From: a virus
Lineage: Duplodnaviria > Heunggongvirae > Uroviricota > Caudoviricetes
Direction: 5' to 3' (one strand)
IMG/VR virus record: IMGVR_UViG_2585427781_000006
DNA: 36,824 nucleotides
Under the pieces are notes generated by a model. The model ran no database searches. It saw only the letters and a program-made list of their open reading frames with translations, and was not told the DNA's origin. The translations under genes and the position numbers were made by a program. This document shows, piece after piece, positions 1 through 34,204 of the stretch (its first letter is position 1; the number at the start of each line of letters is the position of its first letter).

Positions 1-1017
1 TCACACTTCTAGCGTTGCGAGGGGGTTGAATCTCAGAGCCGTCTCAAGATGATCGGGTGCTAAATGGGCATAGCGCATAGTCATTTTTATATCGTGATGT
101 CCGAGGATTTTTTGCAAAGCAAGGATATTTCCACCCGACATCATGAAGTGCGCCGCAAACGTATGGCGCAGAACGTGTGTCAGTTGACCGCGAGGGAGCA
201 CGATAGACGTTTTTTCCATCACGGATAAAAATTGAAAATAGCAGTCTGTAAAGAAATTGAACCCATCAAGCGCCATGATCTCTTCGTAAAGCTCTTTACT
301 GATAGGGATGCTTCTGTTTTTCTTCCCCTTCGTTCTTACAAAGGTAATTCGGTATTTGGTCACTTGCGAGCGGGTAAGATTTATTGCTTCTCGCCAGCGT
401 GCGCCTGTGCTTAGGCATATCTTGACTACCAGTGCCAGAATTGGGTCCTGACGTTTGCAATCAGCCAGCAGTTCAACAATCTGCTCATGGGTAAGCCATG
501 CCATCTCTTTTTCTGCGATGGTGAATTTTCGCATGTTCTCCAGTGGGTTCGGATACGACCATTCGCCCAGGCGGGATAGTTCGCTAAAAACACTACTTAG
601 ATAGCTTTGCTCCAGGTTAATGGTGACCGGGCTTGCTCCTTTCTTCCATTTCTCGCTGAAGTAGATCTCACCTGTCAGGCGTTTATCTCGATAGTGGGCA
701 AACATTTTAGAGGTTAGATCAGTTGCAAGGGGATTGCCCAGAGCGTCAACCATCAACAGCAGTTTGTCATAGACATGCTGCCCAGCTGTCAGAGATTTAC
801 CATGTAGTTTGAACCATAGCTCAATCACGTCTTTCAATGTCCGACGATCCACTGATTCGCCCAGCCAGGGCTTTGCTTCGGTTTCTTCCATCGTGTGACG
901 CTCAAAAGCCAGAGCTTCGCCTTTGGTGGCGAATTGTTTACGCACACGACGTCCACTACGTCCGGCGGGGTAACATTCGCAAAGCCATTTTCCTGTGGTG
1001 AGTTTTCGTACTGCCAT
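1..1017 (-). CDS. int: Phage tyrosine integrase (P2/186 Int family)
   Basis: Tyrosine recombinase catalytic motifs (LRHTFAAHF ... HHDIKMTMRYAHL) in the 1..1095 ORF. Start placed at internal ATG 1017 (MAVRKLTTGKW) because a GGAGGG Shine-Dalgarno lies 8 nt upstream; the track start at 1095 is the alternative. Confidence 0.9.
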   Translation of the reverse strand: MAVRKLTTGKWLCECYPAGRSGRRVRKQFATKGEALAFERHTMEETEAKPWLGESVDRRTLKDVIELWFKLHGKSLTAGQHVYDKLLLMVDALGNPLATDLTSKMFAHYRDKRLTGEIYFSEKWKKGASPVTINLEQSYLSSVFSELSRLGEWSYPNPLENMRKFTIAEKEMAWLTHEQIVELLADCKRQDPILALVVKICLSTGARWREAINLTRSQVTKYRITFVRTKGKKNRSIPISKELYEEIMALDGFNFFTDCYFQFLSVMEKTSIVLPRGQLTHVLRHTFAAHFMMSGGNILALQKILGHHDIKMTMRYAHLAPDHLETALRFNPLATLEV

Positions 1018-1203
1018 AAAAAATGCCCTCCAGTAGAGAGCATTTTTACTGTATGTATAACCAGTGTCAATGTATGAAATCCTGCGACCATACATCTCAC
1101 TGAAGCCATAATGAAGTTAGCTATTTTTTGCTATGTGAGTATGTGACTTTTGCGGTTAGCCTGCGGCTCATTGTTATATTAGGCGCAGGTATAAAAGCAA
1201 AAT

Positions 1204-1395
1204 TTATCGCGAGTTTTTAGTACAGATTTTTTTTGATTTACTAATAGTTCCATCATTGCAAACGAACTTTCCATCGGAGGTACAGTGAGAGACACCTCCC
1301 TTTTTCCCAGAACAAGGATAATTTTTAGCATAGGTAGTTAGTGGGTTTAATAACAAAGAGCATGATAAAACCACAAAAAATACCTTACCAAGCAT
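1204..1395 (-). CDS. Small secreted cysteine-rich peptide (moron, unknown function)
   Basis: 63 aa with N-terminal hydrophobic signal-like segment ([11 protein letters not shown]) and a mature part with 5 Cys. Strong RBS (GGGAGG 5 nt upstream of ATG). AT-rich relative to flanks. Sits between the CI stop and int on the same strand. Confidence 0.5.
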
Positions 1396-1410
1396 AGTTT
1401 CCTCCCGGTA

Positions 1411-1980
1411 TTACCTAACGTACTTAATTGTTAAACTTATAATTTTCCCAATTATTTCAACATCTTCTATCTTGCACTCGAAGGCTCTGTTTCCACCCTC
1501 GACGAAGATTCTTCCACCGGGTAAACGAGTAATGTCACGGATCGTTATTTCGCCATCAATACTTATTACCCATTTACCATCACGTATATCATCAAATTCC
1601 TTATCACAAATAAATTCAGAATTATTATCTGTGATTACAAAAAGATTCTTGAATGCCGACGGTAGAAATTCTCTATCGAAAATATAAAAACCGTCTTCAC
1701 ACAAGGCCCCATCAGATAATACATATTTAGCAACTTCCATAGTATTTGTATTACCTGAAGTTTGCTTTGAACCATGCCCGGTTGTGAGCCAATTAAGCGA
1801 GGTGCCTGTTTCAAGGGCGCACTGGATTACCCATTCTGCTGGGAATGAGTCACGCATGTAGCGTGTGGCGAGTGTACTTTTAGAGATTCCTAAATGATCG
1901 CACAACGCCTGTCGAGTCTTGAATCCATAAGCTTCTACCATGCGCTCTATAGCGCCTCGTCCGCCTTTCTCCAAATTCAT
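1411..1980 (-). CDS. cI: CI-type immunity repressor (phage 186 CI-like)
   Basis: N-terminal HTH (TRQALCDHLGISKSTLATRYMRD), length about 190 aa and position next to int match 186 CI. ATG 1980 chosen over the GTG at 1986 because GGAG lies 7 nt upstream. Confidence 0.85.
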   Translation of the reverse strand: MNLEKGGRGAIERMVEAYGFKTRQALCDHLGISKSTLATRYMRDSFPAEWVIQCALETGTSLNWLTTGHGSKQTSGNTNTMEVAKYVLSDGALCEDGFYIFDREFLPSAFKNLFVITDNNSEFICDKEFDDIRDGKWVISIDGEITIRDITRLPGGRIFVEGGNRAFECKIEDVEIIGKIISLTIKYVR

Positions 1981-2004
1981 GGTCACTCCAAGTGAACTTT
2001 TATC

Positions 2005-2033
2005 TTGACGATTTCACTGTGCGATCGTATGTT
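2005..2033 (+). promoter_or_regulatory. Candidate rightward early promoter (pR-like): TTGACG-17-TATGTT, flanked by GTGAAC/GTTCAC inverted half-sites
   Basis: -35 TTGACG 2005..2010, 17-nt spacer, -10 TATGTT 2028..2033, about 70 nt upstream of the apl-like start. Inverted half-sites AGTGAAC (1991..1997) and GTTCAC (2040..2045) are candidate operators. Confidence 0.3.
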
Positions 2034-2105
2034 TATGGTGTTCACAAAATACAAACGATCCGTATTCGTCCTGATTAATCATCATTAAACGAGGAATGTT
2101 GCATC

Positions 2106-2327
2106 ATGAGACCTAACATTTCAATCACTCTTACCACCCCTCATGTGACTATTGAACGCTATAGCGAGCTGACAGGGCTATCCATCGATACCATCAATGA
2201 CATGTTGGCTGATGGACGCCTTATCCGTCACCGTCTGCGCAAAGATAAAAAACGCGAAAAAGTGATGATCAACATAGCAGCAATGACCGTTGATGCGCTT
2301 TCAGAATGCAATCTAAACCTTAATTAG
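2106..2327 (+). CDS. apl: Apl/Cox-like excisionase and switch regulator (small HTH protein)
   Basis: 73 aa, first gene rightward of the switch region, HTH-like segment ([23 protein letters not shown]). Position corresponds to 186 apl / P2 cox. Confidence 0.6.
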
Positions 2328-2359
2328 TTCGATTCTGAAATACATCAGAGGCATTGACC

Positions 2360-2869
2360 ATGTTTGATTACCAAGTTTCCAAACATCCACATTTTGATGA
2401 AGCCTGTCGTGCATTCGCATTGCGCCACAACCTGGTGCAACTGGCAGAACGTGCTGGCATGAATGTGCAGATTCTGCGGAACAAGTTGAACCCAGCGCAA
2501 CCTCATTTATTAACCGCACCAGAAATCTGGCTGCTTACCGATCTGACTGAAGATTCAACGCTGGTAGATGGTTTTCTGGCTCAGATTCACTGCCTGCCAT
2601 GCGTACCGATTAATGAGGTGGCAAAAGAGAAACTGCCACATTACGTCATGAGTGCAACCGCAGAGATCGGGCGTGTTGCTGCAGGTGCGGTATCTGGCGA
2701 TGTAAAAACCAGTGCAGGTCGTCGTGATGCTATCAGCAGCATTAACTCTGTAACACGACTGATGGCGTTGGCTGCTGTTTCATTGCAGGCCCGTTTACAG
2801 GCTAACCCGGCGATGGCGAGTGCAGTTGATACCGTGACTGGCCTCGGTGCTTCATTCGGTTTGCTGTGA
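2360..2869 (+). CDS. cII: CII-like lysogeny establishment regulator (phage 186 CII family)
   Basis: 169 aa from ATG 2360 ([19 protein letters not shown] ...), recalled as highly similar to 186 CII. Confidence 0.85.
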
Positions 2870-2876
2870 GGTGCTT

Positions 2877-3077
2877 ATGTTGACGAAAGAACCATCATTT
2901 GCATCGCTGCTGGTAAAGCAAAGCCCGGCAATGCACTACGGTCACGGCTGGATCATGGGTGAGGATGGAAAACGCTGGCATCCGTGCCGTTCACAAGATG
3001 AATTGCTGGCAGAACTATCTACGAAAAAACGGGGGAACAAATGGCTATTGAAGGCGCTGCGGCGACTGTTCCATTAA
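2877..3077 (+). CDS. Hypothetical early protein (position of 186 fil)
   Basis: 66 aa from ATG 2877 with GAGGTG RBS; follows cII in the early operon. Function not recognisable from sequence. Confidence 0.45.
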   Translation: MLTKEPSFASLLVKQSPAMHYGHGWIMGEDGKRWHPCRSQDELLAELSTKKRGNKWLLKALRRLFH

Positions 3078-3382
3078 GACCCGGTGAACGCCTGAATGGA
3101 CTTAATCATATTGCGGAGTTAAGGGCGAAAGTTTTTGGTTTGAATATTGAGTCAGAGCTTGAGCGGTTTATTAAAGATATGCGTGATCCACGGGATATCA
3201 ATAATGAACAAAATAAACGGGCACTGGCTGCCATATTCTTTATGGCAAAAATTCCAGCTGAACGTCATAGCATCAGCATTAATGAGCTGACCACTGACGA
3301 AAAGCGGGAGTTGATTAAAGCAATGAATCATTTTCGTGCAGTGGTGAGCTTATTTCCCAGACGGCTAACCATGCCGAATTAA
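3041..3382 (+). CDS. Hypothetical early-operon protein
   Basis: 113 aa ORF in the early operon, overlapping the previous gene end. No motif recognised. Confidence 0.55.
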   Translation: MAIEGAAATVPLRPGERLNGLNHIAELRAKVFGLNIESELERFIKDMRDPRDINNEQNKRALAAIFFMAKIPAERHSISINELTTDEKRELIKAMNHFRAVVSLFPRRLTMPN

Positions 3383-3683: not shown

Positions 3684-3910
3684 TGGCTGATGCAATGGAT
3701 CTCGTACAGCAGCGCGTTGAAGAAGAACGCCAACGCCATATCCGTGCTGCCCGTGCCAAAACGCCGGGCGTGTCCCGCGTGCTTTGCGTTGAGTGTGAAG
3801 CGCCAATTCCGCCAGCACGCCGCCGTGCCATTCCTGGAGTGCAGCTTTGCATTACCTGCCAGGAAATCGCAGAGCTGAAAGGCAAACATTACAACGGAGG
3901 TGCTGTATGA
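3683..3910 (+). CDS. TraR/DksA-family C4 zinc-finger protein
   Basis: 75 aa with CxxC ... CxxC (CVECEAP ... CITCQEI), typical of phage TraR-like proteins. Stop overlaps the dam start (ATGA at 3907..3910). Confidence 0.7.
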   Translation: MADAMDLVQQRVEEERQRHIRAARAKTPGVSRVLCVECEAPIPPARRRAIPGVQLCITCQEIAELKGKHYNGGAV

Positions 3911-4764
3911 GCACCATCCTGAAATGGGCGGGTAATAAAACCGCCATTATGTCCGAACTGAAAAAATACCTTCCTGCTGGCCCGCGACTGGTTGAACCTT
4001 TCGCGGGTTCTTGTGCTGTGATGATGGCGACGGATTACCCCAGCTATCTGGTTGCGGATATTAATCCTGATTTAATCAACCTCTATAAAAAGATTGCCGC
4101 TGATTGCGAAGCGTTTATATCTCGTGCCAAAGTTTTATTTGAGGAAGCAAACAGTGAGCTGGCTTATTACAACATAAGACAGGAGTTTAATTACTCAACT
4201 GAAATTACTGATTTCATGAAGGCGATATATTTCCTGTATCTCAATCGTCACGGTTACCGTGGTTTATGTCGCTATAACAAGAGCGGGTATTTCAACATTC
4301 CCTACGGTAATTATAAAAATCCGTATTTCCCTGAAAAAGAAATTCGCGCATTTGCAGAGAAAGCCCAGCGGGCAACGTTTATCTGCGCGAGCTTTGATGA
4401 AACGCTGGCGATGCTGCAGGTGGGGGATGTGGTGTATTGCGATCCGCCGTATGACGGTACGTTTTCCGGCTATCACACTGATGGTTTCACTGAAGATGAC
4501 CAGTATCACCTGGCATCCATTCTTGAACATCGGTCATCAGAAGGACATCCGGTCATTGTTTCTAACAATGACACATCCCTGATTCGTTCGCTGTATCGCA
4601 ATTTTACTCACCACTATATCAAGGCAAAACGCAGCATCGGCGTGTCAGCTGGCGAGGGTAAATCTGCAACAGAAATCATTGCTGTTTCCGGGCCGAGCTG
4701 CTGGTTGGGATTTGATCCTTCGCGTGGCGTGGATAGTTCTGCCGTGTACGGAGTGTGTGTATGA
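3907..4764 (+). CDS. dam: DNA adenine methyltransferase (Dam-like, GATC-specific family)
   Basis: LKWAGNKT (AdoMet-binding region) and DPPY catalytic motif ([12 protein letters not shown]); overall collinear with E. coli Dam as recalled. Stop overlaps the gpA start. Confidence 0.88.
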
Positions 4765-7175
4765 GTCATGACGATATGAACAATTGCAGCGGCTTTAACG
4801 AGGCCGCCGCAGCATTTTCATGGAACGGCTCGAAAAAGGCCATTAACCCTTATCTGGACCCGGCGGAAGTTGCGCCGGAGTCTGCACTTTCAAACCTGAT
4901 CACTCTGTACGCTGCCGATAACGAGCAGGAACAACTGCGCCGCGAGGCACTGAGTGAGCAGGTCTGGGAGCGTTATTTCTTTAATGAATCCCGTGATCCT
5001 GTCCAGCGCGAAATGGAGCAGGATAAGCTCATTAGCCGGGCAAAGCTGGCGCATGAGCAGCAGCGTTTTAATCCGGACATGGTCATTCTGGCGGACGTAA
5101 ACGCCCAGCCTTCCCATATCAGCAAGCCGCTGATGCAACGTATTGAATACTTCAGCAGCCTGGGCAGGCCAAAGGCTTATTCCCGCTATTTGCGTGAGAC
5201 GATTAAGCCATGTCTGGAGCGACTGGATTGTGTACGTGACAGTCAGCTATCTGTTTCTTTCCGTTTTATGGCAAGCCATCAAGGGCTGGAGGGTCTGCTG
5301 ATCCTGCCTGAAATGAGCCAGGATCAGGTGAAACGCCTGTCCACCCTGGTAGCAGCGCATATGAGCATGTGTCTTGAGGACGCTTGTGGTGATTTGTATG
5401 CCACCGATGACGTTAAGCCAGAAGAAATCCGCAAGACATGGGAAAAGGTGGCAGCGGAAACCCTGCGTCTGGATGTTATCCCGCCTGCGTTTGAGAAACT
5501 TCGTCGGAAAAGAAACCGCCGCAAACCAGTGCCCTATGAACTCATCCCGGGTTCGCTGGCGCGTATGTTGTGTGCCGACTGGTGGTATCGGAAATTATGG
5601 AAGATGCGTTGCGAATGGCGGGGAGAGCAGTTGCGTGCTGTCTGCCTGGTCAGCAAAAAAGCATCCCCCTATGTCAGCTATGAAGCCGTGATGCATAAAC
5701 GTGAGCAGCGCCGTAAGTCGTTGGAGTTTTTTCGTTCTCATGAACTGGTGAACGAAGACGGCGACACGCTGGATATGGAAGATGTGGTAAACGCCAGCAG
5801 CAGCAACCCGGCGCATCGCCGCAATGAGATGATGGCCTGTGTTAAAGGTCTGGAGCTTATCGCGGAAATGCGCAGTGACTGTGCCGTTTTCTACACTATC
5901 ACCTGTCCGTCGCGTTTCCATTCCACGCTCAATAACGGCAGACCAAACCCGACCTGGACAAACGCGACGGTAAGACAAAGTAGCGATTATCTGGTCGGCA
6001 TGTTTGCTGCATTTCGTAAGGCTATGCATAAAGCCGAGTTGCGCTGGTATGGCGTGCGGGTAGCTGAGCCGCATCATGACGGTACTGTGCACTGGCATCT
6101 CATGTGTTTCATGCGTAAAAAAGACCGCCGCGCCATCACTGCATTACTGCGTAAGTTTGCCATCCGTGAAGACCGCGAGGAGCTGGGCAATAACACGGGA
6201 CCACGCTTTAAGTCTGAGCTGATAAACCCGCGCAAAGGTACGCCAACAAGCTATATCGCGAAATACATCAGTAAGAACATTGACGGGCGTGGTCTGGCTG
6301 GGGAGATCAGCAAGGAAACGGGTAAATCCCTGCGTGATAACGCTGAATACGTTAATGCCTGGGCGTCTCTGCATCGTGTTCAGCAATTCCGCTTCTTTGG
6401 CATTCCGGGGCGTCAGGCTTACCGTGAACTGCGATTGCTGGCTGGTCAGGCGGCAAGGCAACAGGGTGACAAAAAAGCAGGTGCGCCGGTACTGGATAAC
6501 CCGCGCCTTGATGCCATTCTGGCTGCTGCTGATGCTGGTTGTTTTGCCACCTATATCATGAAGCAGGGTGGCGTACTGGTTCCCCGTAAATATCACCTCA
6601 TCAGAACCGCTTATGAAATCAACGAAGAGCCAACCGCTTATGGCGATCACGGTATTCGTATTTATGGCATCTGGTCACCCATTGCAGAGGGCAAGATCTG
6701 CACTCATGCGGTGAAGTGGAAAATGGTTCGTAAGGCCGTTGACGTTCAGGAGGCGGCTGCCGACCAGGGCGCTTGCGCCCCTTGGACTCGTGGCAATAAC
6801 TGTCCCCTTGCTGAAAATTTGTACCAACAAGGGAAAGACAAATCAGCTGATGGGGATACCAGAACGGACATTACCCGCATGGATGACAAGGAGTTGCACG
6901 ATTACCTGCACAGTATGAGCAAAAAAGAGCGCCGGGACCTGGCAGCAAGGTTACGCCTGGTTAAACCGAAACGGCGTAAAGACTACAAACAGCGAATTAC
7001 ATACCATCAGCGACTGCAGCTCGTCTATGAGCTGAAGTCCAGAGGATTTGATGGTAGCGAGAAAGAGGTCGATTTACTCCTTCGCGGCGGCAGTATTCCG
7101 TCAGGAGCAGGCTTGCGTATCTTCTATCGGAACCAGCGTTTGTGGGAAGATGATAAGTGGCGGAACCTGTATTAA
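4761..7175 (+). CDS. A: Replication initiation endonuclease gpA (rolling-circle initiator)
   Basis: About 805 aa, following the early genes as in P2/186 gene A. Start at ATG 4761 overlaps the dam stop (ATGA). Confidence 0.88.
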
Positions 7176-7328: not shown

Positions 7329-7517
7329 ATGCAGGACTATTTTTTGGAGTCTTTGAAGCTCCAGCGCATTGATTTTTTTCTTAAGCTTGTAGCGGCTAGT
7401 GAGTGTAGTGATGAAGAGAAGGGGCTGGCTCTGCAGTGGGTTTCTGAATTGACTGATGAACTCATGGCAAAGATCAGAACCCACGAATACAACCGCTCAA
7501 TGGATGTCATCAGTTGA
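7329..7517 (+). CDS. Small protein of the SOS-controlled module (Tum N-terminal-like position)
   Basis: 62 aa from ATG 7329 with AGGAGG RBS 4 nt upstream, downstream of the LexA box. Confidence 0.5.
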   Translation: MQDYFLESLKLQRIDFFLKLVAASECSDEEKGLALQWVSELTDELMAKIRTHEYNRSMDVIS

Positions 7518-7527
7518 GGTGACTTTT

Positions 7528-7761
7528 ATGCGCATTGAAATAATGATCGATAAAGAGCAGAAGATTAGCCAGTCTACCCTGGACGCCCTTGAATCCGAGC
7601 TTTACCGCAATCTGCGCCCCCTGTATCCAAAAACGGTAATTCGTATCCGTAAAGGTAGCTCTAACGGTGTGGAACTGACCGGACTGCAACTGGATGAAGA
7701 AAGAAAACAAGTGATGAAAATTATGCAGAAGGTGTGGGAAGACGACAGCTGGCTGCATTAA
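7528..7761 (+). CDS. DinI-family protein (Tum antirepressor C-terminal-like)
   Basis: 77 aa from ATG 7528 (MRIEIMIDKEQ ... VWEDDSWL), collinear with DinI as recalled. GAGGTGA RBS upstream. Confidence 0.8.
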   Translation: MRIEIMIDKEQKISQSTLDALESELYRNLRPLYPKTVIRIRKGSSNGVELTGLQLDEERKQVMKIMQKVWEDDSWLH

Positions 7762-7798: not shown

Positions 7799-8249
7799 GA
7801 GTTTGGGCAACGAGTGAAATGAGGTGTAAGGTGGGCGGTCATTTTGATAAGTGATCGTCCACTTTGTGTCAGAACCTGATGTTTGTTGTACATTCGGACG
7901 AATAGGCGGCGTTGTTTGCTTTAAAAATAAAACAGGAACACTTTGAGAAAGTGAACAGGTGTATTTATTTGTTGCTGATGAATGAGAGTAACTCTAATTT
8001 GGATAATTAGCTTGATAATAGGTCAGACGAAAATAATATTCCAGCACACTTTTGGTCGCAACAGGCATTAGTTAATTTTAAGTGATAAATTTTTATCCAT
8101 AAATTAACACTAGTGTGTCATCTAGCGAAACCGAATCGCTTTAACTCATAACTTGAAGTTGAATCAGTGGGGTAGCAGTAGGCATGCCGGAACTGATAAA
8201 CTGTGCAGAAGGCTAAACATTCATTCACTCGTGAGATAGTAGCTAAATT

Positions 8250-9116
8250 ATGCAAAGAATTATTCCTGATAAAAATTGGTGGGAAAAAGAGCGTATTAAT
8301 CGTAAAGCATCATCAATATGCCCATATGCTAGTTCATACAGATGTCCTCGATACTATCAGAGTGTAGTTTTGCTCTCAAGCATCAATGTGATAGCTGGTA
8401 TGGCAACTAGGAAAGAAAAAGAGTTGGGCGAATTTTGGGAAAGAACCACTTTCTCATCTTTATGTGATGAAGAAGTCCCTACAGTTACTACAAAAGAATA
8501 TGGCGGCCTTGCATCAGTTAGTAATTTTTGCCCAGAAATATCATTTAGATATTTACACTACTACGCCGATTATATGTGTAAATATGTTGATGAGATAGAT
8601 CAGGACACTGGCAGGCGTATTGCGGAAAAAGATAATTTAGAAAATGATTGGAAATATACATGGATGTCAGTCAATCCTAAATTTTATTTAGATTGCGATG
8701 TTTTTGAAACTGTCAAAAATTTCAATGAAGAATTGGCTAGTGATTACTTAAAAAGATTGCACCCAAATATCGTTCAGCAAATAGATAGAATGAATAATTG
8801 CTTGGATAATAATGATCCGGCAGGTGCACTGCACGCAGCCTCTAATATTTTAGAAACTATGGCTAAGGAAATCACTCAAAACCCGAATGTGGCAAATGAG
8901 TCATTGGGTGGTTTTTTTAAACAGTTCGAAAAAATGTCAAAATTACCTAAGAATCTTATTGATGCTGTTAAAGATATTTATGATTTACGCAACAAATTAC
9001 CTACTGCTGGACACGGAAGCTTGAACAAGCCTGAATTGACTATGGTAGAAGCTATAACTATTGCGGCAATGACAAAGGCGATTTTAGAAATTGAATATCG
9101 AAGCAAAGCCATCTAA
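8250..9116 (+). CDS. Hypothetical accessory protein (AT-rich cargo gene)
   Basis: 288 aa ORF in a strongly AT-rich island. N-terminal Cys pairs (CPYASSYRCPRY). No catalytic motif recognised with confidence. Confidence 0.6.
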   Translation: MQRIIPDKNWWEKERINRKASSICPYASSYRCPRYYQSVVLLSSINVIAGMATRKEKELGEFWERTTFSSLCDEEVPTVTTKEYGGLASVSNFCPEISFRYLHYYADYMCKYVDEIDQDTGRRIAEKDNLENDWKYTWMSVNPKFYLDCDVFETVKNFNEELASDYLKRLHPNIVQQIDRMNNCLDNNDPAGALHAASNILETMAKEITQNPNVANESLGGFFKQFEKMSKLPKNLIDAVKDIYDLRNKLPTAGHGSLNKPELTMVEAITIAAMTKAILEIEYRSKAI

Positions 9117-9243
9117 CAAACCAAATTATGTGGTTCAAATTCCCGCTACACTTCTGTGTTGCCGCCAGCGTCTACTTATCGCTGTGAGTTCAACGGGTGA
9201 TGATGCGTTAGAGATCTCTGAATCGATTGAAGTCTAAGGTTGT

Positions 9244-9265
9244 CAGGGCTGTAACAGCAGCCCTG
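9244..9265. terminator. Perfect 8-bp hairpin between the convergent cargo genes
   Basis: cagggctg-taacag-cagccctg. No U-tract on either side. Confidence 0.3.
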
Positions 9266-9365
9266 TGTCATGAATGGATTGCATATTAATTGACGAAGAA
9301 CAGACTAATATCATCGATAGCTGTTTTCAAAAATAGACCAATAACAAACTGAGATGTTATCGTAT

Positions 9366-10019
9366 TCATTTCGATGATTGATCCAGATGTGTATATAACC
9401 ATTGAAAGAGTTTTCTAATTTTTGTGATAGTATCTTTTAAATAATTTAAGGAGATTATTATATTATTTTCATTGTTTAATGAAAGAGTAGGTGTTTTATC
9501 AATGATATTTTTTAAGGCTACAGCTGTGCTCATTTTTTTAATGTCTCCATTAGCATGAACTATGCAATTCCTTACTTTGTTAAACTCTGTCATGAATTGC
9601 CACTCTTGTGACAGGCCAAAGTTTATATCCATTAATTTTGTTAAATATCTTTTTGCTTTGTGGATGCCATCACCATTAAAATCGGTTACTGATATATTGG
9701 TGTTTACAATCCTTTGACATATATTGCAATAGTCGTTTAGGTTGTGCTCTAAGCATGAGTATAAAGATACCAAAGCAGATTTATTAAAAATATTTGGTTG
9801 TATGTTAACTAAGAAATCATATTGCTCTGAATAATAGTCTTCTAAGTAATTAATATAATCGTCAGGAGCATTCTTTTTTTCATCTTCATATGCTTTTTTT
9901 AATTCCGATAAGTCAACTCTGTTTTGGCCGCCTGCTCCTAGGATATATTTTTCGAAATCATCAATCTGCGCTTCAAGTGAATATCTTGATAGCTGTGCGA
10001 AAAGTTTGTATTTACTCAT
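9366..10019 (-). CDS. Hypothetical accessory protein with HEPN-like R-N-x3-H motif (candidate Abi-type RNase)
   Basis: 217 aa ORF in the AT-rich island. Motif KVRNCIVHANGD matches the canonical HEPN R-[N]-x3-H signature in spacing and context. Confidence 0.6.
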   Translation of the reverse strand: MSKYKLFAQLSRYSLEAQIDDFEKYILGAGGQNRVDLSELKKAYEDEKKNAPDDYINYLEDYYSEQYDFLVNIQPNIFNKSALVSLYSCLEHNLNDYCNICQRIVNTNISVTDFNGDGIHKAKRYLTKLMDINFGLSQEWQFMTEFNKVRNCIVHANGDIKKMSTAVALKNIIDKTPTLSLNNENNIIISLNYLKDTITKIRKLFQWLYTHLDQSSK

Positions 10020-10362
10020 CGGTATGCCATTCCTTTTTAATTATAAACCTTTGGGTTAAAAGGTGCTGAAAATAGTAACTCATTATTTTTGTTTGTAAAG
10101 GGGGTATTGTTTTTACTAGATCAAGATAAAACAATGGGAATATCCGCTTTTCGCTCACAGCGGACTTTCATCTTTGTAAACCCGTATGATTAGCTTTTCA
10201 GCGGTCATTCAGATACGGATTTACGCTTCCCTTGGCTGTGCATGACTATGACGCATGAGATCGCATGATCGTTAGAGGATCGTTTTTGCTGAGGCCAGCC
10301 AGAACTGGCGTGCTTTTGCTTATGTCGTGCAGGTGCATGAAAACCACTACATAAAGCGGGCA

Positions 10363-10381
10363 GGCGTGGCGGGGATACGAG
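10363..10381. other. Probable cos site (cohesive end region)
   Basis: GGCGTGGCGGGGA at 10363..10375 matches the first 13 nt of the 186 cohesive end as recalled (GGCGTGGCGGGGAAAGCAT; P2 GGCGAGGCGGGGAAAGCAC). Lies in a 500-bp non-coding GC-normal stretch. Confidence 0.45.
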
Positions 10382-10410
10382 CGCGCGCTAAGTCATATAA
10401 GAGTTATATA

Positions 10411-10439
10411 TTGATTTGATTGCTGGACATGCATACAGT
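10411..10439 (+). promoter_or_regulatory. Candidate promoter of the kinase/HIRAN operon (TTGATT-17-TACAGT) with degenerate LexA-like box
   Basis: -35 TTGATT 10411..10416, 17-nt spacer, -10 TACAGT 10434..10439. CTGG-N8-ACAG at 10423..10438 is one mismatch from the LexA box core. Shares the 13-mer ATGCATACAGTAT with the tum promoter region. Confidence 0.3.
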
Positions 10440-10533
10440 ATCGCTCTATCATCTAATAAATCTTAGAGTATTTGACAATGTTTGGATAAAATGGAACCTA
10501 ACTTATTCATAATCCGCTAAACAGGGATGTCAG

Positions 10534-11448
10534 ATGCCATACCAATTGGTAGAGCTTAGCCCCGTAGCTAACGATCTTGAACAGTTAGGAACCAAAGAGA
10601 AGTTTTGGTTCTATTTCTCCGATGACACTGTAAATTTGCAGTTGTTTAAGTACTCTAGGCCAGGTACTGGCGAGCATTGGTCTGAAAAGTGTGCTGCTGA
10701 GTTATGTCATTTGCTTAACATTCCACATGCTAGCTATGATTTGGCGCGATACAATGGTCGATTCGGTGTGGTGACTCAGAATATCATTCCATCTGGTTTC
10801 CGGATGGTAATGGGAAATGAAGTGCTTCACAGTTCGACATTCGATTATCCAGGGCCTTTACAAGCCGGGGAAAAGCCGGTAAGGGTCAGAGAACACACTG
10901 TCACAAGGGTATTGGGTTGTTTAGATAGGGAATCTATCAAGCCTCCTCCGAGTGTATATGATCTAACCGGGCTAAATGCAGCAGATGTATTTTGTGGATT
11001 TTTGATGCTCGATGCACTTGTGAGTAATCAAGATCGCCATCATGAAAATTGGGCGATCATGCTTAACAATGAAACTGGTGAGCAGTTTTTGTGTCCAACA
11101 TACGATCATGCCGCTAGTTTAGGAAGGGAGATGTTAGATGATGAGCGTAACGAACGGCTTAATACTAAAGATAAAAATCGACAAATCCCATGTTTTGTAA
11201 GAAAAGCTCGCTCTGAGCTATTCAAAGCAAAAACTGATAAAAAGCCCTTGCTGACCGTTGAAGCATTTCAACATGCAGTTGAAGGGAGAGTTGCCGCTCG
11301 CGACCATTGGTTAGGTAAGTTGAGCGTTTTAACAGAAGATTCCATTACAGATGTGTTTAACCAAGTGCCTTCATCGTGTATATCCGACAGTGCACGTAGA
11401 TTTGCAACGTTAATGGTAATGGAAAATCGCAGAAGGTTACTAGAATGA
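10534..11448 (+). CDS. HipA-family Ser/Thr kinase, short form (kinase core only)
   Basis: 304 aa. Gly-rich loop-like LGTKEKFWF near the N-terminus (compare HipA VAGAQEKT), catalytic loop SNQDRHHENWA (compare HipA TDGHAKNFS) and CPTYDHAAS (compare HipA TPFYDIIS). Lacks the HipA N-terminal domain. Confidence 0.7.
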   Translation: MPYQLVELSPVANDLEQLGTKEKFWFYFSDDTVNLQLFKYSRPGTGEHWSEKCAAELCHLLNIPHASYDLARYNGRFGVVTQNIIPSGFRMVMGNEVLHSSTFDYPGPLQAGEKPVRVREHTVTRVLGCLDRESIKPPPSVYDLTGLNAADVFCGFLMLDALVSNQDRHHENWAIMLNNETGEQFLCPTYDHAASLGREMLDDERNERLNTKDKNRQIPCFVRKARSELFKAKTDKKPLLTVEAFQHAVEGRVAARDHWLGKLSVLTEDSITDVFNQVPSSCISDSARRFATLMVMENRRRLLE

Positions 11449-12185
11449 CTAATACAAACTCCGTTTACGTCGCATGGCAGGCACCAGATACCAGAGACTG
11501 GCATGTTGTTGGTAACTTGCAAGAGCGCAAATCGGGGTATGTTTTCAGGTATACCAAAGGTGCTCTTAAATCTACTAAATTTACAAAGTTTAGCGGCATG
11601 AGTGATGTTCGTGAAACTTATGTTTCGGAAGAATTGTTTCCTCTTTTTAAAAATCGCCTTTTATCACCGAGACGTCCAGAGTATCCGAGTTTCATTAAAT
11701 GGCTTGGATTTGAAGAAGATAAGGTAAATCCTATCGATATTCTTGCTCGCTCGGGAGGCTTACGAAGCACTGATCAGCTGCAGATTTTCAAAAAAATTGA
11801 TGTTGATTCTGATGGTAACTTTGAGCATTTTTTCTTCTTACATGGACTTGGTTACTTAAATAGCTTAGCTAATGCTCGTGTATCTGAATTGAAACCGGGG
11901 CAAATTTTGCGTCTTTGCTTGGATCTTCAAAATGAATACGATGGGGATGCTGTTGTCGTTCGTGCAGATAAACCAGCTGAAATCGTTGGTTACTGCCCTA
12001 GGTATTTAAGTAATGATATCAAGAAGATGTTATTGGATGATCCAAAATCAATCACTTTAACGGTCGAAAAGATTAGCGATGATGCTCCTCATAACTATCG
12101 GTTATTATGTAAATTATCAGGAGTACTAAGCCAAGCCTGTCAATCGACGCTGATTCCTCAGGATGAGTTTGAACCTATTGAGTAA
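11445..12185 (+). CDS. HIRAN-domain protein with HipA-N-terminal-like (HipS-like) region
   Basis: 246 aa, start overlapping the kinase stop (ATGA). C-terminal LRLCLDLQNEYDGDAVVVRADKPAEIVGYCPRYLSNDIKKMLLD fits the HIRAN signature. N-terminal half shows the pattern of the HipA N-domain (LFKNRLLSPRRP ... PIDILARSGG versus HipA FFDNLLPDSP ... PFDLLSEIGRD). Confidence 0.6.
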   Translation: MTNTNSVYVAWQAPDTRDWHVVGNLQERKSGYVFRYTKGALKSTKFTKFSGMSDVRETYVSEELFPLFKNRLLSPRRPEYPSFIKWLGFEEDKVNPIDILARSGGLRSTDQLQIFKKIDVDSDGNFEHFFFLHGLGYLNSLANARVSELKPGQILRLCLDLQNEYDGDAVVVRADKPAEIVGYCPRYLSNDIKKMLLDDPKSITLTVEKISDDAPHNYRLLCKLSGVLSQACQSTLIPQDEFEPIE

Positions 12186-12191
12186 ATGAAG

Positions 12192-12215
12192 AAAAGCCAC
12201 CAAACGGTGGCTTTT
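12192..12215. terminator. Bidirectional intrinsic terminator between the HIRAN gene and the portal gene
   Basis: Perfect 10-bp stem aaaagccacc-aaac-ggtggctttt with T-rich flank; A/T runs on both strands. Confidence 0.6.
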
Positions 12216-12219
12216 CTTA

Positions 12220-13260
12220 TTATGGGACTATATCTAGCGAGTAGGTATTAAACTGTATCGCCTCCTTGCCAAGCCAATCATTCATCTCCTGTAATCGCTT
12301 TTGTAGTGGCATTAGCTCATTTCGGACGAATACACGGCTGGCCTTCTCCACATCCCCAAACCCCCCGACATTATTAGGCATTATCCCCATCATTTGTGGC
12401 GGCACACGATGCGCCGCCATCATGTCGTCCCGGCTCACGTTCTTGATATTCAGGAACTCATCCTTCGCCGCCACTTCTGACAACGGGATAATCTGAAGCC
12501 CGTCCTTTTTACCGTTAGGCGAGTACATAAACAGGTTACGGAAGTTACCAGGACCTTTGGCGCTTTTCATCGCATTGCGGAGGTTGTTCACATCCTCCTG
12601 GTTCTGCGCTGCATCGGTCATGTACATGATGAAGCCTGCATGACTGCCGTTAATGTAATACTTGCGGCGGAACAGCGTGGCGGACTCGTTGAGCAGAGCT
12701 GACGGAATGGCAGAAAGATAACCAGGCAGGCCGTAGATCTCCTGGTTGATGTCCGGTTCCATCAGATGAAAAATGTTGCCTTTCGTGAACTGATACGGCT
12801 GCGTAGTCATGCCGTATTGCACAAACCAGTAGGTATCAAGGTCTAACCCGCGTCGGGTGTATTTTGCCAGTGCAGGCTCAAGGGCGATAACTTCACCGAA
12901 GCGGTTCGTGCGTTTCTCCAGGTAGGCGTTACCAAAAACCAGATAGTCCTGTACAAAACGCGAAAAAGCCTGCTGGCTGAGCAGCGGGTGAGGGATGTAG
13001 GTGCTGGTCAGAATGTTGCACTTCACTGCAATCGGTGAGCTGTGATGCACGGCGGCGCGGAAGGTTCGCGCCAGTCCGTCGAAACTCACAGGCGGCTCGT
13101 ACCAACGATCCATCTGTACGCATTCCACATAGTCCAGCAGTTCGCGGCGGTCCAGAACAGGAACGGGATCACCGAAGCTGAATGCTTCGGCTGAAGTCTG
13201 GCTTTTATGCTGGATCTGTTTCGTCGACGCAGCGCGGTTCTTCTTACTCTTTCCCATCAA
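12220..13260 (-). CDS. Q: Portal protein gpQ
   Basis: 346 aa, size and position as in P2 Q (adjacent to the large terminase gene, divergent from the capsid operon). Confidence 0.88.
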   Translation of the reverse strand: MMGKSKKNRAASTKQIQHKSQTSAEAFSFGDPVPVLDRRELLDYVECVQMDRWYEPPVSFDGLARTFRAAVHHSSPIAVKCNILTSTYIPHPLLSQQAFSRFVQDYLVFGNAYLEKRTNRFGEVIALEPALAKYTRRGLDLDTYWFVQYGMTTQPYQFTKGNIFHLMEPDINQEIYGLPGYLSAIPSALLNESATLFRRKYYINGSHAGFIMYMTDAAQNQEDVNNLRNAMKSAKGPGNFRNLFMYSPNGKKDGLQIIPLSEVAAKDEFLNIKNVSRDDMMAAHRVPPQMMGIMPNNVGGFGDVEKASRVFVRNELMPLQKRLQEMNDWLGKEAIQFNTYSLDIVP

Positions 13261-15023
13261 AAAATCTCCACAATATTGCTGGTATTGGCGGACTCGCCCT
13301 GCAGCGGTTCGTTAAACAGTGCGTGCATTGTTGCCCAGGCCAGATCGGCATGGCTGGCTTCTTCGCTGCGGCTGGCTTCATAGGTCGGGCGGTTGCCACT
13401 GGCAGTGGTAGCGCGACGGATTGCCATAAATGACTGCGCAATGTCGGTGTGCCCGGCGTCAAACTCCAGACGGCGGTGGCTGATAATGTCGTAGGCCTTG
13501 AGTACCAGGGCGTTTTTAACGTTGGGGTTATAGACAAACTCCCTGACGGCAGGAAAAAACGCTTTCACGTTCTCGTAAACCCCGTGACCGACGCCGGTCG
13601 AGTCGATACCGATATAGGTCACGTTATACTGTTCGGTCAGTTTTTTGATGGCGTCAGCCTGGGCGCGGAAGTCCATCCCGCGCCACTGGTGACGCTCAAG
13701 AATGCGGAACTTACCACCCGGCACGGCTGGCGGAGCCACCACCACGCATCCGGCACTGTCGCCGTTCTGCGTACCTTTTGCCGGGTCATAACCGATCCAC
13801 ACTTCGCGCCAGCCAAACGGGCGCAGGGCCAGTGCATGAAAGTCGGTCCAGACTTCCCAGCTGTCCACCATGCACGCCTGCAGTTCGCTGAGCGGGAACA
13901 CGGACGCGAGATCGTCCACGAACTCGCACATCAGCAGGTTCTGGTATTCGTCCGGGCTGTACTCCATGCGCAGCTGGTCGAGGTCGAACAGGTTACAGCC
14001 GCCGCGCACCGCATCTTCCACGGTGACTATCTGGCGGTATTGCCCGTCTGCGCACAGTAGGCCGGGGGCCAGATTGCTGTGGGACAGGTCGATGTCCACC
14101 TTGTCAGCTTTGTTGCGTCCACGGTTGAACAGCGCACCGGACCAGAACGGATAAGCACTGTGGGTCAGGCTGGATGGCGTGGAAAAATAGGTTTGTCGCC
14201 ATTTCTTGTGAATAGCCATACCGGAAGCCACTTTGCGCAACTCCTGGAATTTCGGTATCCAGAAATATTCATCCAGATACAGGTTGCCGTGGTAACTCTG
14301 CGCCGTGCGGGCATTGGTGCCGAGGAAGTAAAGCGTGGCCCCGTTAGGAAGCACCATCGGATCGCCTTTCAGCTCCACCTCGACTTCTTTGGCGAAGTCG
14401 ATGATGTACTGCTTAAAGACGTGAGCCTGTGCCTTACTGGCAGAAAGGAAAATCTGGTTACGTCCGGTAAGCAGGGCGTCAATCAGGGCTTCACGGGCAA
14501 AGTAAAAGGTCGCGCCGATCTGGCGTGACTTCAGCAGGTTGCGGATGCGGTTGGTTTTTCCGGCTTCCCACCAGTGGCGCTGGTAGTTGAACATGGAGGA
14601 ATGGAAGATTTCTTCCAGTTTCTCTATCTGTTCATCGGTGAAAACATTCTTTTCCGGCTGACGGCGCGGGCCTTTGTTGCGGTTGGCGACGTTAGGGTTT
14701 AAGTCGGCTTCGTTGCCGCCATTGTTAAACTTGCCGATCCGCGCGTGGCGCTCCGACTGGCGCGCCAGCAGGTCAATTTCTTTGAAATCTTTCCCTTCTT
14801 TGTGCTCCTTCATAATGAGCTGGCAGTAGCGTGCGGCGGTGGTGAGCTGCATCTGATCCAGCGGCCCATAGTCACCCCACTTGTCGCGTTTTTTCCAGCT
14901 GTGAACGGTTGCAACTTTCTCGCCCAGCATTTCAGCAATGCGGGCTACGCGGTATCCCTGAAAGTACAGCAGCATGGCCTGCCGACGGGGATCGAGATCT
15001 GCGGGTGTCAGTGTGGTGTTCAT
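13257..15023 (-). CDS. P: Terminase large (ATPase) subunit gpP
   Basis: 588 aa, size as P2 P; stop overlaps the Q start. Confidence 0.9.
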   Translation of the reverse strand: MNTTLTPADLDPRRQAMLLYFQGYRVARIAEMLGEKVATVHSWKKRDKWGDYGPLDQMQLTTAARYCQLIMKEHKEGKDFKEIDLLARQSERHARIGKFNNGGNEADLNPNVANRNKGPRRQPEKNVFTDEQIEKLEEIFHSSMFNYQRHWWEAGKTNRIRNLLKSRQIGATFYFAREALIDALLTGRNQIFLSASKAQAHVFKQYIIDFAKEVEVELKGDPMVLPNGATLYFLGTNARTAQSYHGNLYLDEYFWIPKFQELRKVASGMAIHKKWRQTYFSTPSSLTHSAYPFWSGALFNRGRNKADKVDIDLSHSNLAPGLLCADGQYRQIVTVEDAVRGGCNLFDLDQLRMEYSPDEYQNLLMCEFVDDLASVFPLSELQACMVDSWEVWTDFHALALRPFGWREVWIGYDPAKGTQNGDSAGCVVVAPPAVPGGKFRILERHQWRGMDFRAQADAIKKLTEQYNVTYIGIDSTGVGHGVYENVKAFFPAVREFVYNPNVKNALVLKAYDIISHRRLEFDAGHTDIAQSFMAIRRATTASGNRPTYEASRSEEASHADLAWATMHALFNEPLQGESANTSNIVEIF

Positions 15024-17077: not shown

Positions 17078-17728
17078 ATGAGCCTGAGTCCCGCACGGCA
17101 GCATCGCCTGCGCGTTCAGGCTGAACAGGCCGCCCGCGAGGGCGGCAGCGTTCGCCACGCGTCGGGCTATGACCTGATGCTGCTGCAACTGGCGGAAGAC
17201 CGCCGCCGTCTCAAGGGCGTTCAGTCCACGGTCAAAAAAGAGGAAATCAAGGTGGAGCTGCTGCCGAAGTACGCCGCCTGGGCGGAGGGTGTCCTTGCTG
17301 CCGGAGGCGCTCAACAGGATGACGTGCTGATGTACGTGATGCTGTGGCGCATTGATGCCGGAGATTATGCCGGGGCGCTGGAGATCGGGCGTCACGCCCT
17401 GCGTCATGGCTGGGTGATGCCGCTGGGTAATCGCAATGTGCAGACCGTGCTGGCAGAGGAAATGGCAGACGCGGCGCAGAGCGCAATGCTTGCCGCCACC
17501 GGCTTTGATGCCGATCTGTTGCTGCAGACGCTGGAGCTGACAGACGGTCTGGATATGCCGGACCAGTCACGGGCGCGTCTGCATAAAGCGATTGGCGCTG
17601 TCCTGAGTGAAAGCAATCCGGCTTCCGCCCTTAACCATCTCAACCATGCGTTGCAGCTCGATCCCCGCTGTGGCGTGAAAAAAGACAAACAGCAGCTGGA
17701 GCGCAGACTGCGCAATGACAGCCGCTGA
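17078..17728 (+). CDS. M: Terminase small (endonuclease) subunit gpM
   Basis: 216 aa, follows N as in P2. Confidence 0.82.
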   Translation: MSLSPARQHRLRVQAEQAAREGGSVRHASGYDLMLLQLAEDRRRLKGVQSTVKKEEIKVELLPKYAAWAEGVLAAGGAQQDDVLMYVMLWRIDAGDYAGALEIGRHALRHGWVMPLGNRNVQTVLAEEMADAAQSAMLAATGFDADLLLQTLELTDGLDMPDQSRARLHKAIGAVLSESNPASALNHLNHALQLDPRCGVKKDKQQLERRLRNDSR

Positions 17729-33660: not shown

Positions 33661-33750
33661 TTCTTCGCAATGGAGAACTTTTAAGTTTGCAAAATGGAAT
33701 AATACGGTATCATTGTTGTGAATTTAGCAAAAATGGGGAGAACTCGAAAA

Positions 33751-33969
33751 ATGATGATTTGCCCACTGTGTGGAAGTGCCGCCCATACTCGCAGCAGTTT
33801 TCAGGTATCTTCATTGACCAAAGAGCGTTATAACCAGTGCCAGAACATTAACTGCAGCCATACTTTTGTTACCCATGAAACTTTTGTTCGTTCGATTGCA
33901 ACACCAAAAGAGTCGAATCCAGTTCAGCCGCATCCAATGAAATCAGGACAGGTGGCGCTCTCTCTTTGA
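33751..33969 (+). CDS. ogr: Ogr/Delta-family zinc-finger late gene activator
   Basis: MMICPLCGSAAHTRSS ... ERYNQCQNINCSHTF, four-Cys zinc finger collinear with P2 Ogr as recalled. Start at ATG 33751 with GGGGAG RBS. Confidence 0.85.
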   Translation: MMICPLCGSAAHTRSSFQVSSLTKERYNQCQNINCSHTFVTHETFVRSIATPKESNPVQPHPMKSGQVALSL

Positions 33970-34204
33970 CGCTGCCGCCATTTTGTCGCCATCGTTAAAA
34001 AACAGTGCTTCTAACATCATGATTTTAAACATCTTAAATTTCAGGCAACAAAAAACCCATCAACCTTGAACCGAAATGGCGGGGGTGATGGGCTCCACAA
34101 AATGGGGACATCAAAGAAAAGCAGTGGCACTAATTAAGACTGATGCCCTGCGGAAAAGTTCTGCGGTTGTGCAAAAAAATTTCATTTTCAGGGCAACTTC
34201 AGTT

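Follow-up and report, generated by a model that had tools for sequence, protein, structure and literature searches.

The locus examined here raises the question of whether a 19-nt sequence between two groups of accessory genes is the site at which a prophage genome is cut into cohesive ends, and whether it matters to those genes that they lie beside it. The window, that is, the whole stretch of 36,824 nt that was analysed (IMG/VR record IMGVR_UViG_2585427781_000006), carries the 19-mer GGCGTGGCGGGGATACGAG in a gap of 514 bp, bordered on the left by an ORF that reads leftward (9366-10019) and on the right by one that reads rightward (10534-11448). Signed positions below are counted from the proposed top-strand cut, and the features of the window are collected in Table 1.

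Table 1. Features of the window, with the matches on which each assignment is based.
Feature	Coordinates	Strand	Evidence and remarks
Integrase	1-1095	-	Left part of the prophage
186-type CI repressor	1411-1986
Dam-type (D12-class) DNA adenine methylase	3847-4764		Directly upstream of gpA
Replication protein gpA	4755-7175	+	Pfam Phage_GPA, E=2.1e-126; left border of the gpA-gpQ hotspot
DinI/Tum-like gene	7456-7761
288-aa gene, right-end cargo	8250-9116	+	Weak match to Abi_C (E=0.0017), short of the Pfam cut-off
217-aa HEPN-like gene, last gene of the right end	9366-10019	-	Weak PADLOC RTasHEPN match, E=1.1e-5
Conserved cos cassette, -125 to +26 from the top-strand cut	10238-10388	+	Conservation in relatives
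Three GCATG repeats (starts 10240, 10253, 10263)	10240-10267	+	TGCAT at the same offsets in 186, P2, P4 and SEN8
Palindrome GCCAG-CCAGAA-CTGGC, then a T-run	10294-10309	+	In the cassette; flagged as terminator-like
Fourth GCATG (10335), then AAAACC	10335-10348	+	29 nt left of the cut; TGCAT.AAAACC invariant in the window, 186, P2, P4 and SEN8
cos cohesive-end sequence (19 nt)	10363-10381	+	Unique; identical to the cos of HS and SEN8
CGCGCGC, final conserved bases right of the cohesive end	10382-10388	+	Homology with relatives stops here
HipA-like kinase PDC-M03A, first left-end gene	10534-11448	+	PADLOC E=1.4e-121; weak Pfam HipA_C, E=3.8e-4
HIRAN-domain protein PDC-M03B, second left-end gene	11445-12185	+	PADLOC E=3.4e-93; Pfam HIRAN E=1.1e-13
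Portal protein gpQ	12220-13260	-	Pfam Phage_portal, E=1e-19; 94% to HS; right border of the cos-to-Q slot
Large terminase gpP, probable cos cutter	13257-15023	-	Pfam Terminase_6N, Terminase_6C, Terminase_5
Scaffold O, capsid N, head completion L			With M, after P
Small terminase gpM, probably recognises cos	17078-17728	+	Pfam Phage_term_smal, E=1.2e-39
Tail genes through D, then ogr	33718-33969 (ogr)
attR core AACAAAAAACCCAT, end of the prophage	34047-34060	+	Exact match to the HS att core (PMC8008629)
Host sRNA gene rybB	34047-34125	-	Rfam 100.3 bits; adjoins the prophage

Match to Reference cos Sites

The cos of phage 186 is annotated at positions 1-19 of NC_001317 with the sequence GGCGTGGCGGGGAAAGCAT. 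The window 19-mer is identical to it at 15 of 19 positions, with the first 13 exact and the differences confined to positions 14, 16, 17 and 19. A sequence-only reading of this DNA had taken these first 13 bases (GGCGTGGCGGGGA, 10363-10375) to match the start of the 186 cohesive end, and the annotated 186 site bears this out at all 13 bases. The cos of P2 (annotated at positions 1-19 of NC_001895) is GGCGAGGCGGGGAAAGCAC, and it agrees with the window 19-mer at 14 of 19 positions. The window 19-mer is also of the type GGCG[A/T]GGCGGGG... that characterizes cos sites of the Peduoviridae (P2 family). Within the 36.8-kb window it occurs as a single copy, even when up to three mismatches are allowed, and no match to it appeared in 100 dinucleotide-preserving shuffles of the window. 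Read across the site, the sequence runs ...AAAGCGGGCA, then GGCGTGGCGGGGATACGAG, then CGCGCGCTAAG...

The same reading had described 10020-10533 as the only long non-coding stretch of normal GC content. The gap is real, but normal GC content belongs to its core alone, with 55% in 10238-10388 against 37% in 10020-10237 and 32% in 10389-10533, the whole window having 51%. At gathering thresholds, no Rfam family was found in 10020-10533, the sole match in the window being the host RybB. Promoter-like sites in the intergenic region numbered 2, against a shuffle mean of 2.0, and so were not in excess.

Mapped Ends in a Closely Related Phage

The cut positions of a near-identical phage have been mapped in the literature. 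Zund et al. (2021, Microbiome, PMC8008629, Suppl. Table 4) used mitomycin C to induce E. coli HS and gave the cos of the HS prophage as 5'-GGCGTGGCGGGGATACGAG-3' at 926016-926034, by 'StartSite analysis/phageTerm'. In NC_009800.1 (E. coli HS), the window 19-mer was found at exactly 926016-926034. The large terminase gpP of the window is identical to that of HS over all 588 aa (588/588), and the small terminase gpM is identical at 214 of 216 aa; gpA and the portal protein are 96% and 94% identical, respectively, and the cos cassette agrees at 134 of 151 nt. Judged by these identities, the HS prophage is nearly the same phage as that of the window. The homology between the two breaks at -125 and at +26, and the HS cargo differs on both sides of cos, a hypothetical gene of 225 aa lying on the left and another of 463 aa on the right. 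With the same terminase acting on the same site as in HS, a cut at 10363/10381 can be inferred for the window about as strongly as sequence evidence permits.

The genome announcement of phage SEN8 (PMC5427200) names ggcgtggcggggatacgag as cos by annotation. The SEN8 record NC_047753 starts with the identical 19-mer, labelled 'putative cos site', and ends at the equivalent of window position 10362. SEN8 resembles the window in that cos and the portal gene are separated by cargo, here an HNH endonuclease together with a hypothetical gene; it differs in its host, Salmonella, and in the cargo itself, and its cos is based on annotation, without end mapping. The call of a cos site in the window is confirmed as correct but ordinary, the same sequence having already been published as cos both by annotation and by end mapping. 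Literature searches on the cos of SopEPhi/Fels-2 returned nothing useful, and a paper on P2-virus diversity is silent on cos.

The Prophage and Its Integration Site

By the ORF list and Pfam, the prophage genes follow the order of the P2 family across the window. The packaging module is full, comprising Q, P, O, N, M and L, and both terminase genes, gpM and gpP, are encoded on the same element as the cos site. The site itself stands in the order expected of a P2-family cos, with the gpA side first, then cos at 10363, and then Q and P. As in P2 and 186, it lies between accessory genes downstream of A and the portal gene. At the left, the D12-class methylase gene overlaps gpA, an arrangement also seen in Fels-2, SEN8 and the HS prophage. 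At the other end, rybB is followed by a ybjL-like permease gene. The att core of HS lies at the 3' end of rybB, which indicates that the window prophage uses the HS integration site. A satellite cos was considered as well and was rejected, as the site is flanked by gpA and Q, which belong to a complete P2-type module.

Taken together, we put the probability at roughly 95% that the site is the functional cos of an apparently intact 186/Fels-2-like prophage of the P2 family, integrated at the 3' end of rybB in E. coli, with attL beyond the window. The main competing possibility is that the cos sequence is intact but inert, the prophage being defective elsewhere so that no cos ends are made. Along with attL, anything left of the integrase gene lies beyond the window, and in PEC422, a close relative, an internal stop has made the portal gene a pseudogene, which indicates that members of this lineage do decay. 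However, every packaging gene tested is full-length and matches its family strongly, the inducible HS phage has the same gpP and a gpM that is 99% identical, and the window also contains a 186-type CI repressor gene and a DinI/Tum-like gene. An inert site is improbable on these grounds, and the prophage of the window is presumably inducible.

The Conserved cos Cassette

To define the extent of the site, IMG/VR was scanned with a pattern from the left flank only (TGCATNAAAACCNNNNCNTNAAGNGGGC), the 19-mer being excluded, and at least 120 loci were obtained. Among the matches listed, the exact 19-mer of the window is the commonest variant (42 of 120 loci), the others including the P2 type (26), the 186 type (16) and a C-variant (16). 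The portal proteins that accompany the window variant are 85-99% identical to the window portal, and those accompanying the P2 and 186 variants are about 61% identical to it, again among the matches listed. This pairing indicates that the window 19-mer is the cos variant of the Fels-2-like lineage.

Conservation was then measured over 58 unique Fels-2-type loci among the matches listed, which were anchored on the left flank and not chosen by the 19-mer. In these, the frequency of the commonest base is about 0.35-0.45 up to -126, rises to at least 0.84 at -125, stays high through the 19-mer and the GCGCGC that follows, and is about 0.4 past +26. Within the 19-mer, positions 1-12 and 14-19 are invariant in the 58 listed loci, and position 13 is A, C or G. 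Absence of conservation among related phages would have counted against the sequence-only reading; the 19-mer is conserved in these 58 listed loci. The window carries the group consensus at 140 of the 151 cassette positions and differs at 11. Positions -29 to -2 were partly set by the search pattern, so conservation there is circular; outside the pattern, 57 positions are at least 95% conserved, and the window retains 56 of them.

An ungapped alignment anchored on the cut, in which the window was compared with the joined right and left ends of 186, P2, P4 and SEN8, extends this beyond the Fels-2-like lineage. The sequence-only reading had proposed an alignment with the cos regions of 186, P2 and related phages as a check, and these do align in register, as do P4 and SEN8. 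All five sequences share three TGCAT motifs between -125 and -95, the TGCAT and AAAACC pair spanning -29 to -18, AAG.GGGC directly left of the cut, the 19-mer itself, GCGCGC at +20 to +25, and AAGCGGGC, each in the same register. The elements expected to flank a P2-family cos, namely TGCAT repeats, AAAACC and GCGCGC after the 19-mer, are therefore in fixed register around the window site. Past +26, the five sequences are unrelated.

On the plus strand, GCATG occurs 4 times in the 151-bp core, against 0.16 expected from its frequency across the window, and the repeats are candidate binding sites for the terminase (gpM). Most relatives retain CCAG-NN-CTGG, the core of the palindrome in the cassette, at an unchanged offset. 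In most Fels-2-type loci the stem there is 9 bp long, GCCCGCCAG-NN-CTGGCGGGC, followed by TTTTG and terminator-like in look; the stem of the window has two mismatches relative to it, and 186-type loci have CCAG-NN-CTGG without the T-run. Judging from this pattern of conservation, 10238-10388 is probably the complete region of terminase recognition and cleavage.

The primary deletion study of the P2/P4 cos is reportedly that of Ziermann and Calendar from 1990. Papers citing that study give no minimal boundaries for the P2/P4 cos. Left of the cassette, a further stretch of about 90-100 bp (10139-10237) is 95-97% identical in several hundred E. coli genomes with differing left cargo; it is not conserved across the wider IMG/VR set listed, and it includes a terminator-like hairpin at 10150-10164.

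Comparison with 186, P2 and P4

Phage 186 resembles the window in the architecture of the left flank and in gene order, with A, then cos, then the portal and terminase genes. It differs in that its portal gene W follows about 195 nt after cos, with no cargo between. P2 is similar to the window in carrying accessory defence genes (old and tin) on the side of cos that becomes the right end, whereas its cos-to-Q interval is 187 nt and without cargo. This P2 flank between cos and Q is moderately conserved within the P2/186-type group among the matches listed.

In P4 (NC_001609), the cassette is in register, and the cargo genes gop, beta and cII lie just right of the cohesive end, on the side of cos where the window has its kinase/HIRAN operon. 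The similarity between P4 and P2 stops at +26. Unlike the window prophage, P4 is a satellite without its own terminase or portal, and it carries the P2-type 19-mer.

Proposed Packaging and Genome Ends

By analogy with P2 and 186 and from the mapping in HS, the gpM/gpP terminase would recognise the cassette of about 150 bp at 10238-10388 after excision and replication of the prophage. The top strand would then be nicked before 10363 and the bottom strand after 10381, 19 nt apart, to yield a linear genome with 5'-protruding cohesive ends, of which the left one carries GGCGTGGCGGGGATACGAG and the right one the complement of this sequence. Recognition would be asymmetric, with about 125 conserved bp and four GCATG copies on the side of the future right end and 7 bp past the 19-mer. 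An analogy with lambda cosB as a guide to the end packaged first was set aside, no source on this point having been found for P2. The cos call sets the ends of the packaged genome, the left end starting at 10363 and the right end stopping at 10362 plus the 19-nt overhang.

Cargo at the Two Genome Ends

The sequence-only reading had placed the 288-aa and HEPN-like genes at the right end of the packaged genome and the kinase and HIRAN genes at the left end; this geometry holds, and relatives show variable cargo on both sides. The start codon of the HEPN-like gene is 343 nt from the right terminus. The kinase gene is the first coding sequence of the left end, its start codon being 171 nt from the left terminus. 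The kinase and HIRAN genes are adjacent, give full-length matches and overlap by 4 nt, in agreement with PDC-M03, a candidate system of PADLOC. A scan of the 34 nt that separate the stop codons of the HIRAN and portal genes found no terminator-like site. An anti-phage role of the cargo is putative, with a strong match for PDC-M03 and weak matches for HEPN and Abi_C.

The interval between gpA and gpQ next to cos is a known defence hotspot of P2-like phages, according to the hotspot passages of Rousset et al. 2022 (PMC9122126), which also speculate that cohesive ends promote cargo exchange. The corresponding passages of a 2026 survey (PMC13586616) use the same gpA-gpQ definition. In these passages, the interval is taken as one hotspot; in the window, it consists of two slots parted by the cassette. 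Syntenic prophages carry differing genes between a conserved gpA and a conserved gpQ, as is expected of such a hotspot. Since cargo varies on both flanks, cos splits the gpA-gpQ hotspot, and the position of the cassette inside it gives two cargo slots at opposite ends of virion DNA.

In the lineage of the window, the distance from cos to the portal gene is 176-3550 nt and that from gpA to cos is 486-3800 nt among the matches listed; in P2/186-type loci, the portal gene usually follows about 200 nt after cos, again among the matches listed. Cargo between cos and the portal gene includes a TIR protein in phage 500465-1, a 566-aa protein in Fels-2 and a 463-aa protein in HS. Across 43 relatives among the matches listed, the occupied cos-to-portal slots hold 77 ORFs in 68 clusters, with families such as PtuA, AriA, GajA/Old-like ATPases, reverse transcriptases, GmrSD, AIPR, DprA, ThsB-TIR, SieB and RelA/SpoT, among others. 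In these 43 listed relatives, 71 of the 77 slot ORFs point away from cos and converge on the portal gene.

The two slots were surveyed in 5,426 complete E. coli genomes, with the full 8000-10237 taken as left cargo and 10389-12219 as right cargo. The left cargo was found in 9 genomes, the right cargo in 21 and both in none (0), so the combination seen in the window is absent from this collection. PEC422 has the left slot of the window together with an LPO_1073-family gene in the right slot, and O25b:H4 has the same left slot with a P-loop NTPase on the right. Conversely, 89-3156 carries PDC-M03 on the right as in the window, with a SIR2 and ATPase pair on the left. The left and right slots assort independently. 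Moreover, 8 further E. coli genomes carry the 288-aa gene without the HEPN-like gene, which indicates that the left slot is itself modular. In the same survey, NZ_CP015088.1 (E. coli O25b:H4 'extrachromosomal', 29.5 kb, linear) was seen to be the genome of a P2-like phage in which many genes are frameshifted. The record is a second copy of a prophage in the chromosome of that strain and may be an excised phage or an assembly artefact.

HIRAN domains of the eukaryotic HLTF bind 3'-OH DNA ends, and cos ends have a recessed 3'-OH. The sequence-only reading, which placed the kinase/HIRAN operon immediately after cos, had suggested that DNA ends made at cos would be the first feature met by a HIRAN-type sensor; the distance from the left terminus to the start of the operon is 171 nt. 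In one version, the HIRAN protein would recognise cos ends of incoming P2-family or P4 DNA by their recessed 3'-OH; in another, the PDC-M03 operon would gain from its terminal place on virion DNA. Against sensing of cos ends, HIRAN accounts for just one of the 68 unrelated clusters found in the same slot of the 43 listed relatives, and PDC-M03 also occurs far from cos. A Rhodococcus pyridinivorans plasmid (NZ_CP088976.1, 3076-4675) carries homologues of the kinase and HIRAN proteins, 31.5% and 32.9% identical, between hsdS and hsdM in a type I restriction-modification operon whose surroundings contain no cos motif, and full-length HIRAN homologues are also found on cyanobacterial and actinobacterial plasmids. 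In addition, a system triggered by the phage's own cos ends would harm its carrier. What speaks for the idea is position, and the general cargo hotspot already accounts for position. The suggestion is unsupported: a HIRAN protein placed beside cos as a sensor of its ends is very unlikely, and there is equally little chance that PDC-M03 has a functional reason to lie 171 nt from the left cohesive end. The last alternative, that a G-rich intergenic sequence resembles the 186 cohesive end by chance, has in its favour nothing but the shortness of the 13-mer quoted in the sequence-only reading, and it is rejected on the count of 0 in 100 shuffles, the 151 bp in register with five reference elements and the identical sequence mapped in HS.

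Implications for the P2 Family

With the site taken as the functional cos of a 186/Fels-2-like prophage, cos biology as known is unchanged by these results, and the hotspot next to it had already been published. Only three points are mildly new, namely that the cassette has sharp edges at -125 and +26, that the two slots assort independently and that the genes of the right slot show a strong orientation bias. A milder and better-supported proposal than a functional position of PDC-M03 is that the 151-bp cassette acts as a recombination pivot, which would allow both slots, and the equivalent hotspot of P4, to be swapped independently. Slots that can be exchanged separately fit the published idea that cos ends or the cassette promote exchange, although they are not proof of it. 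Defence surveys would do better to score the gpA-gpQ hotspot of Fels-2-like phages as a pair of slots, with -125 and +26 as their sharp borders.
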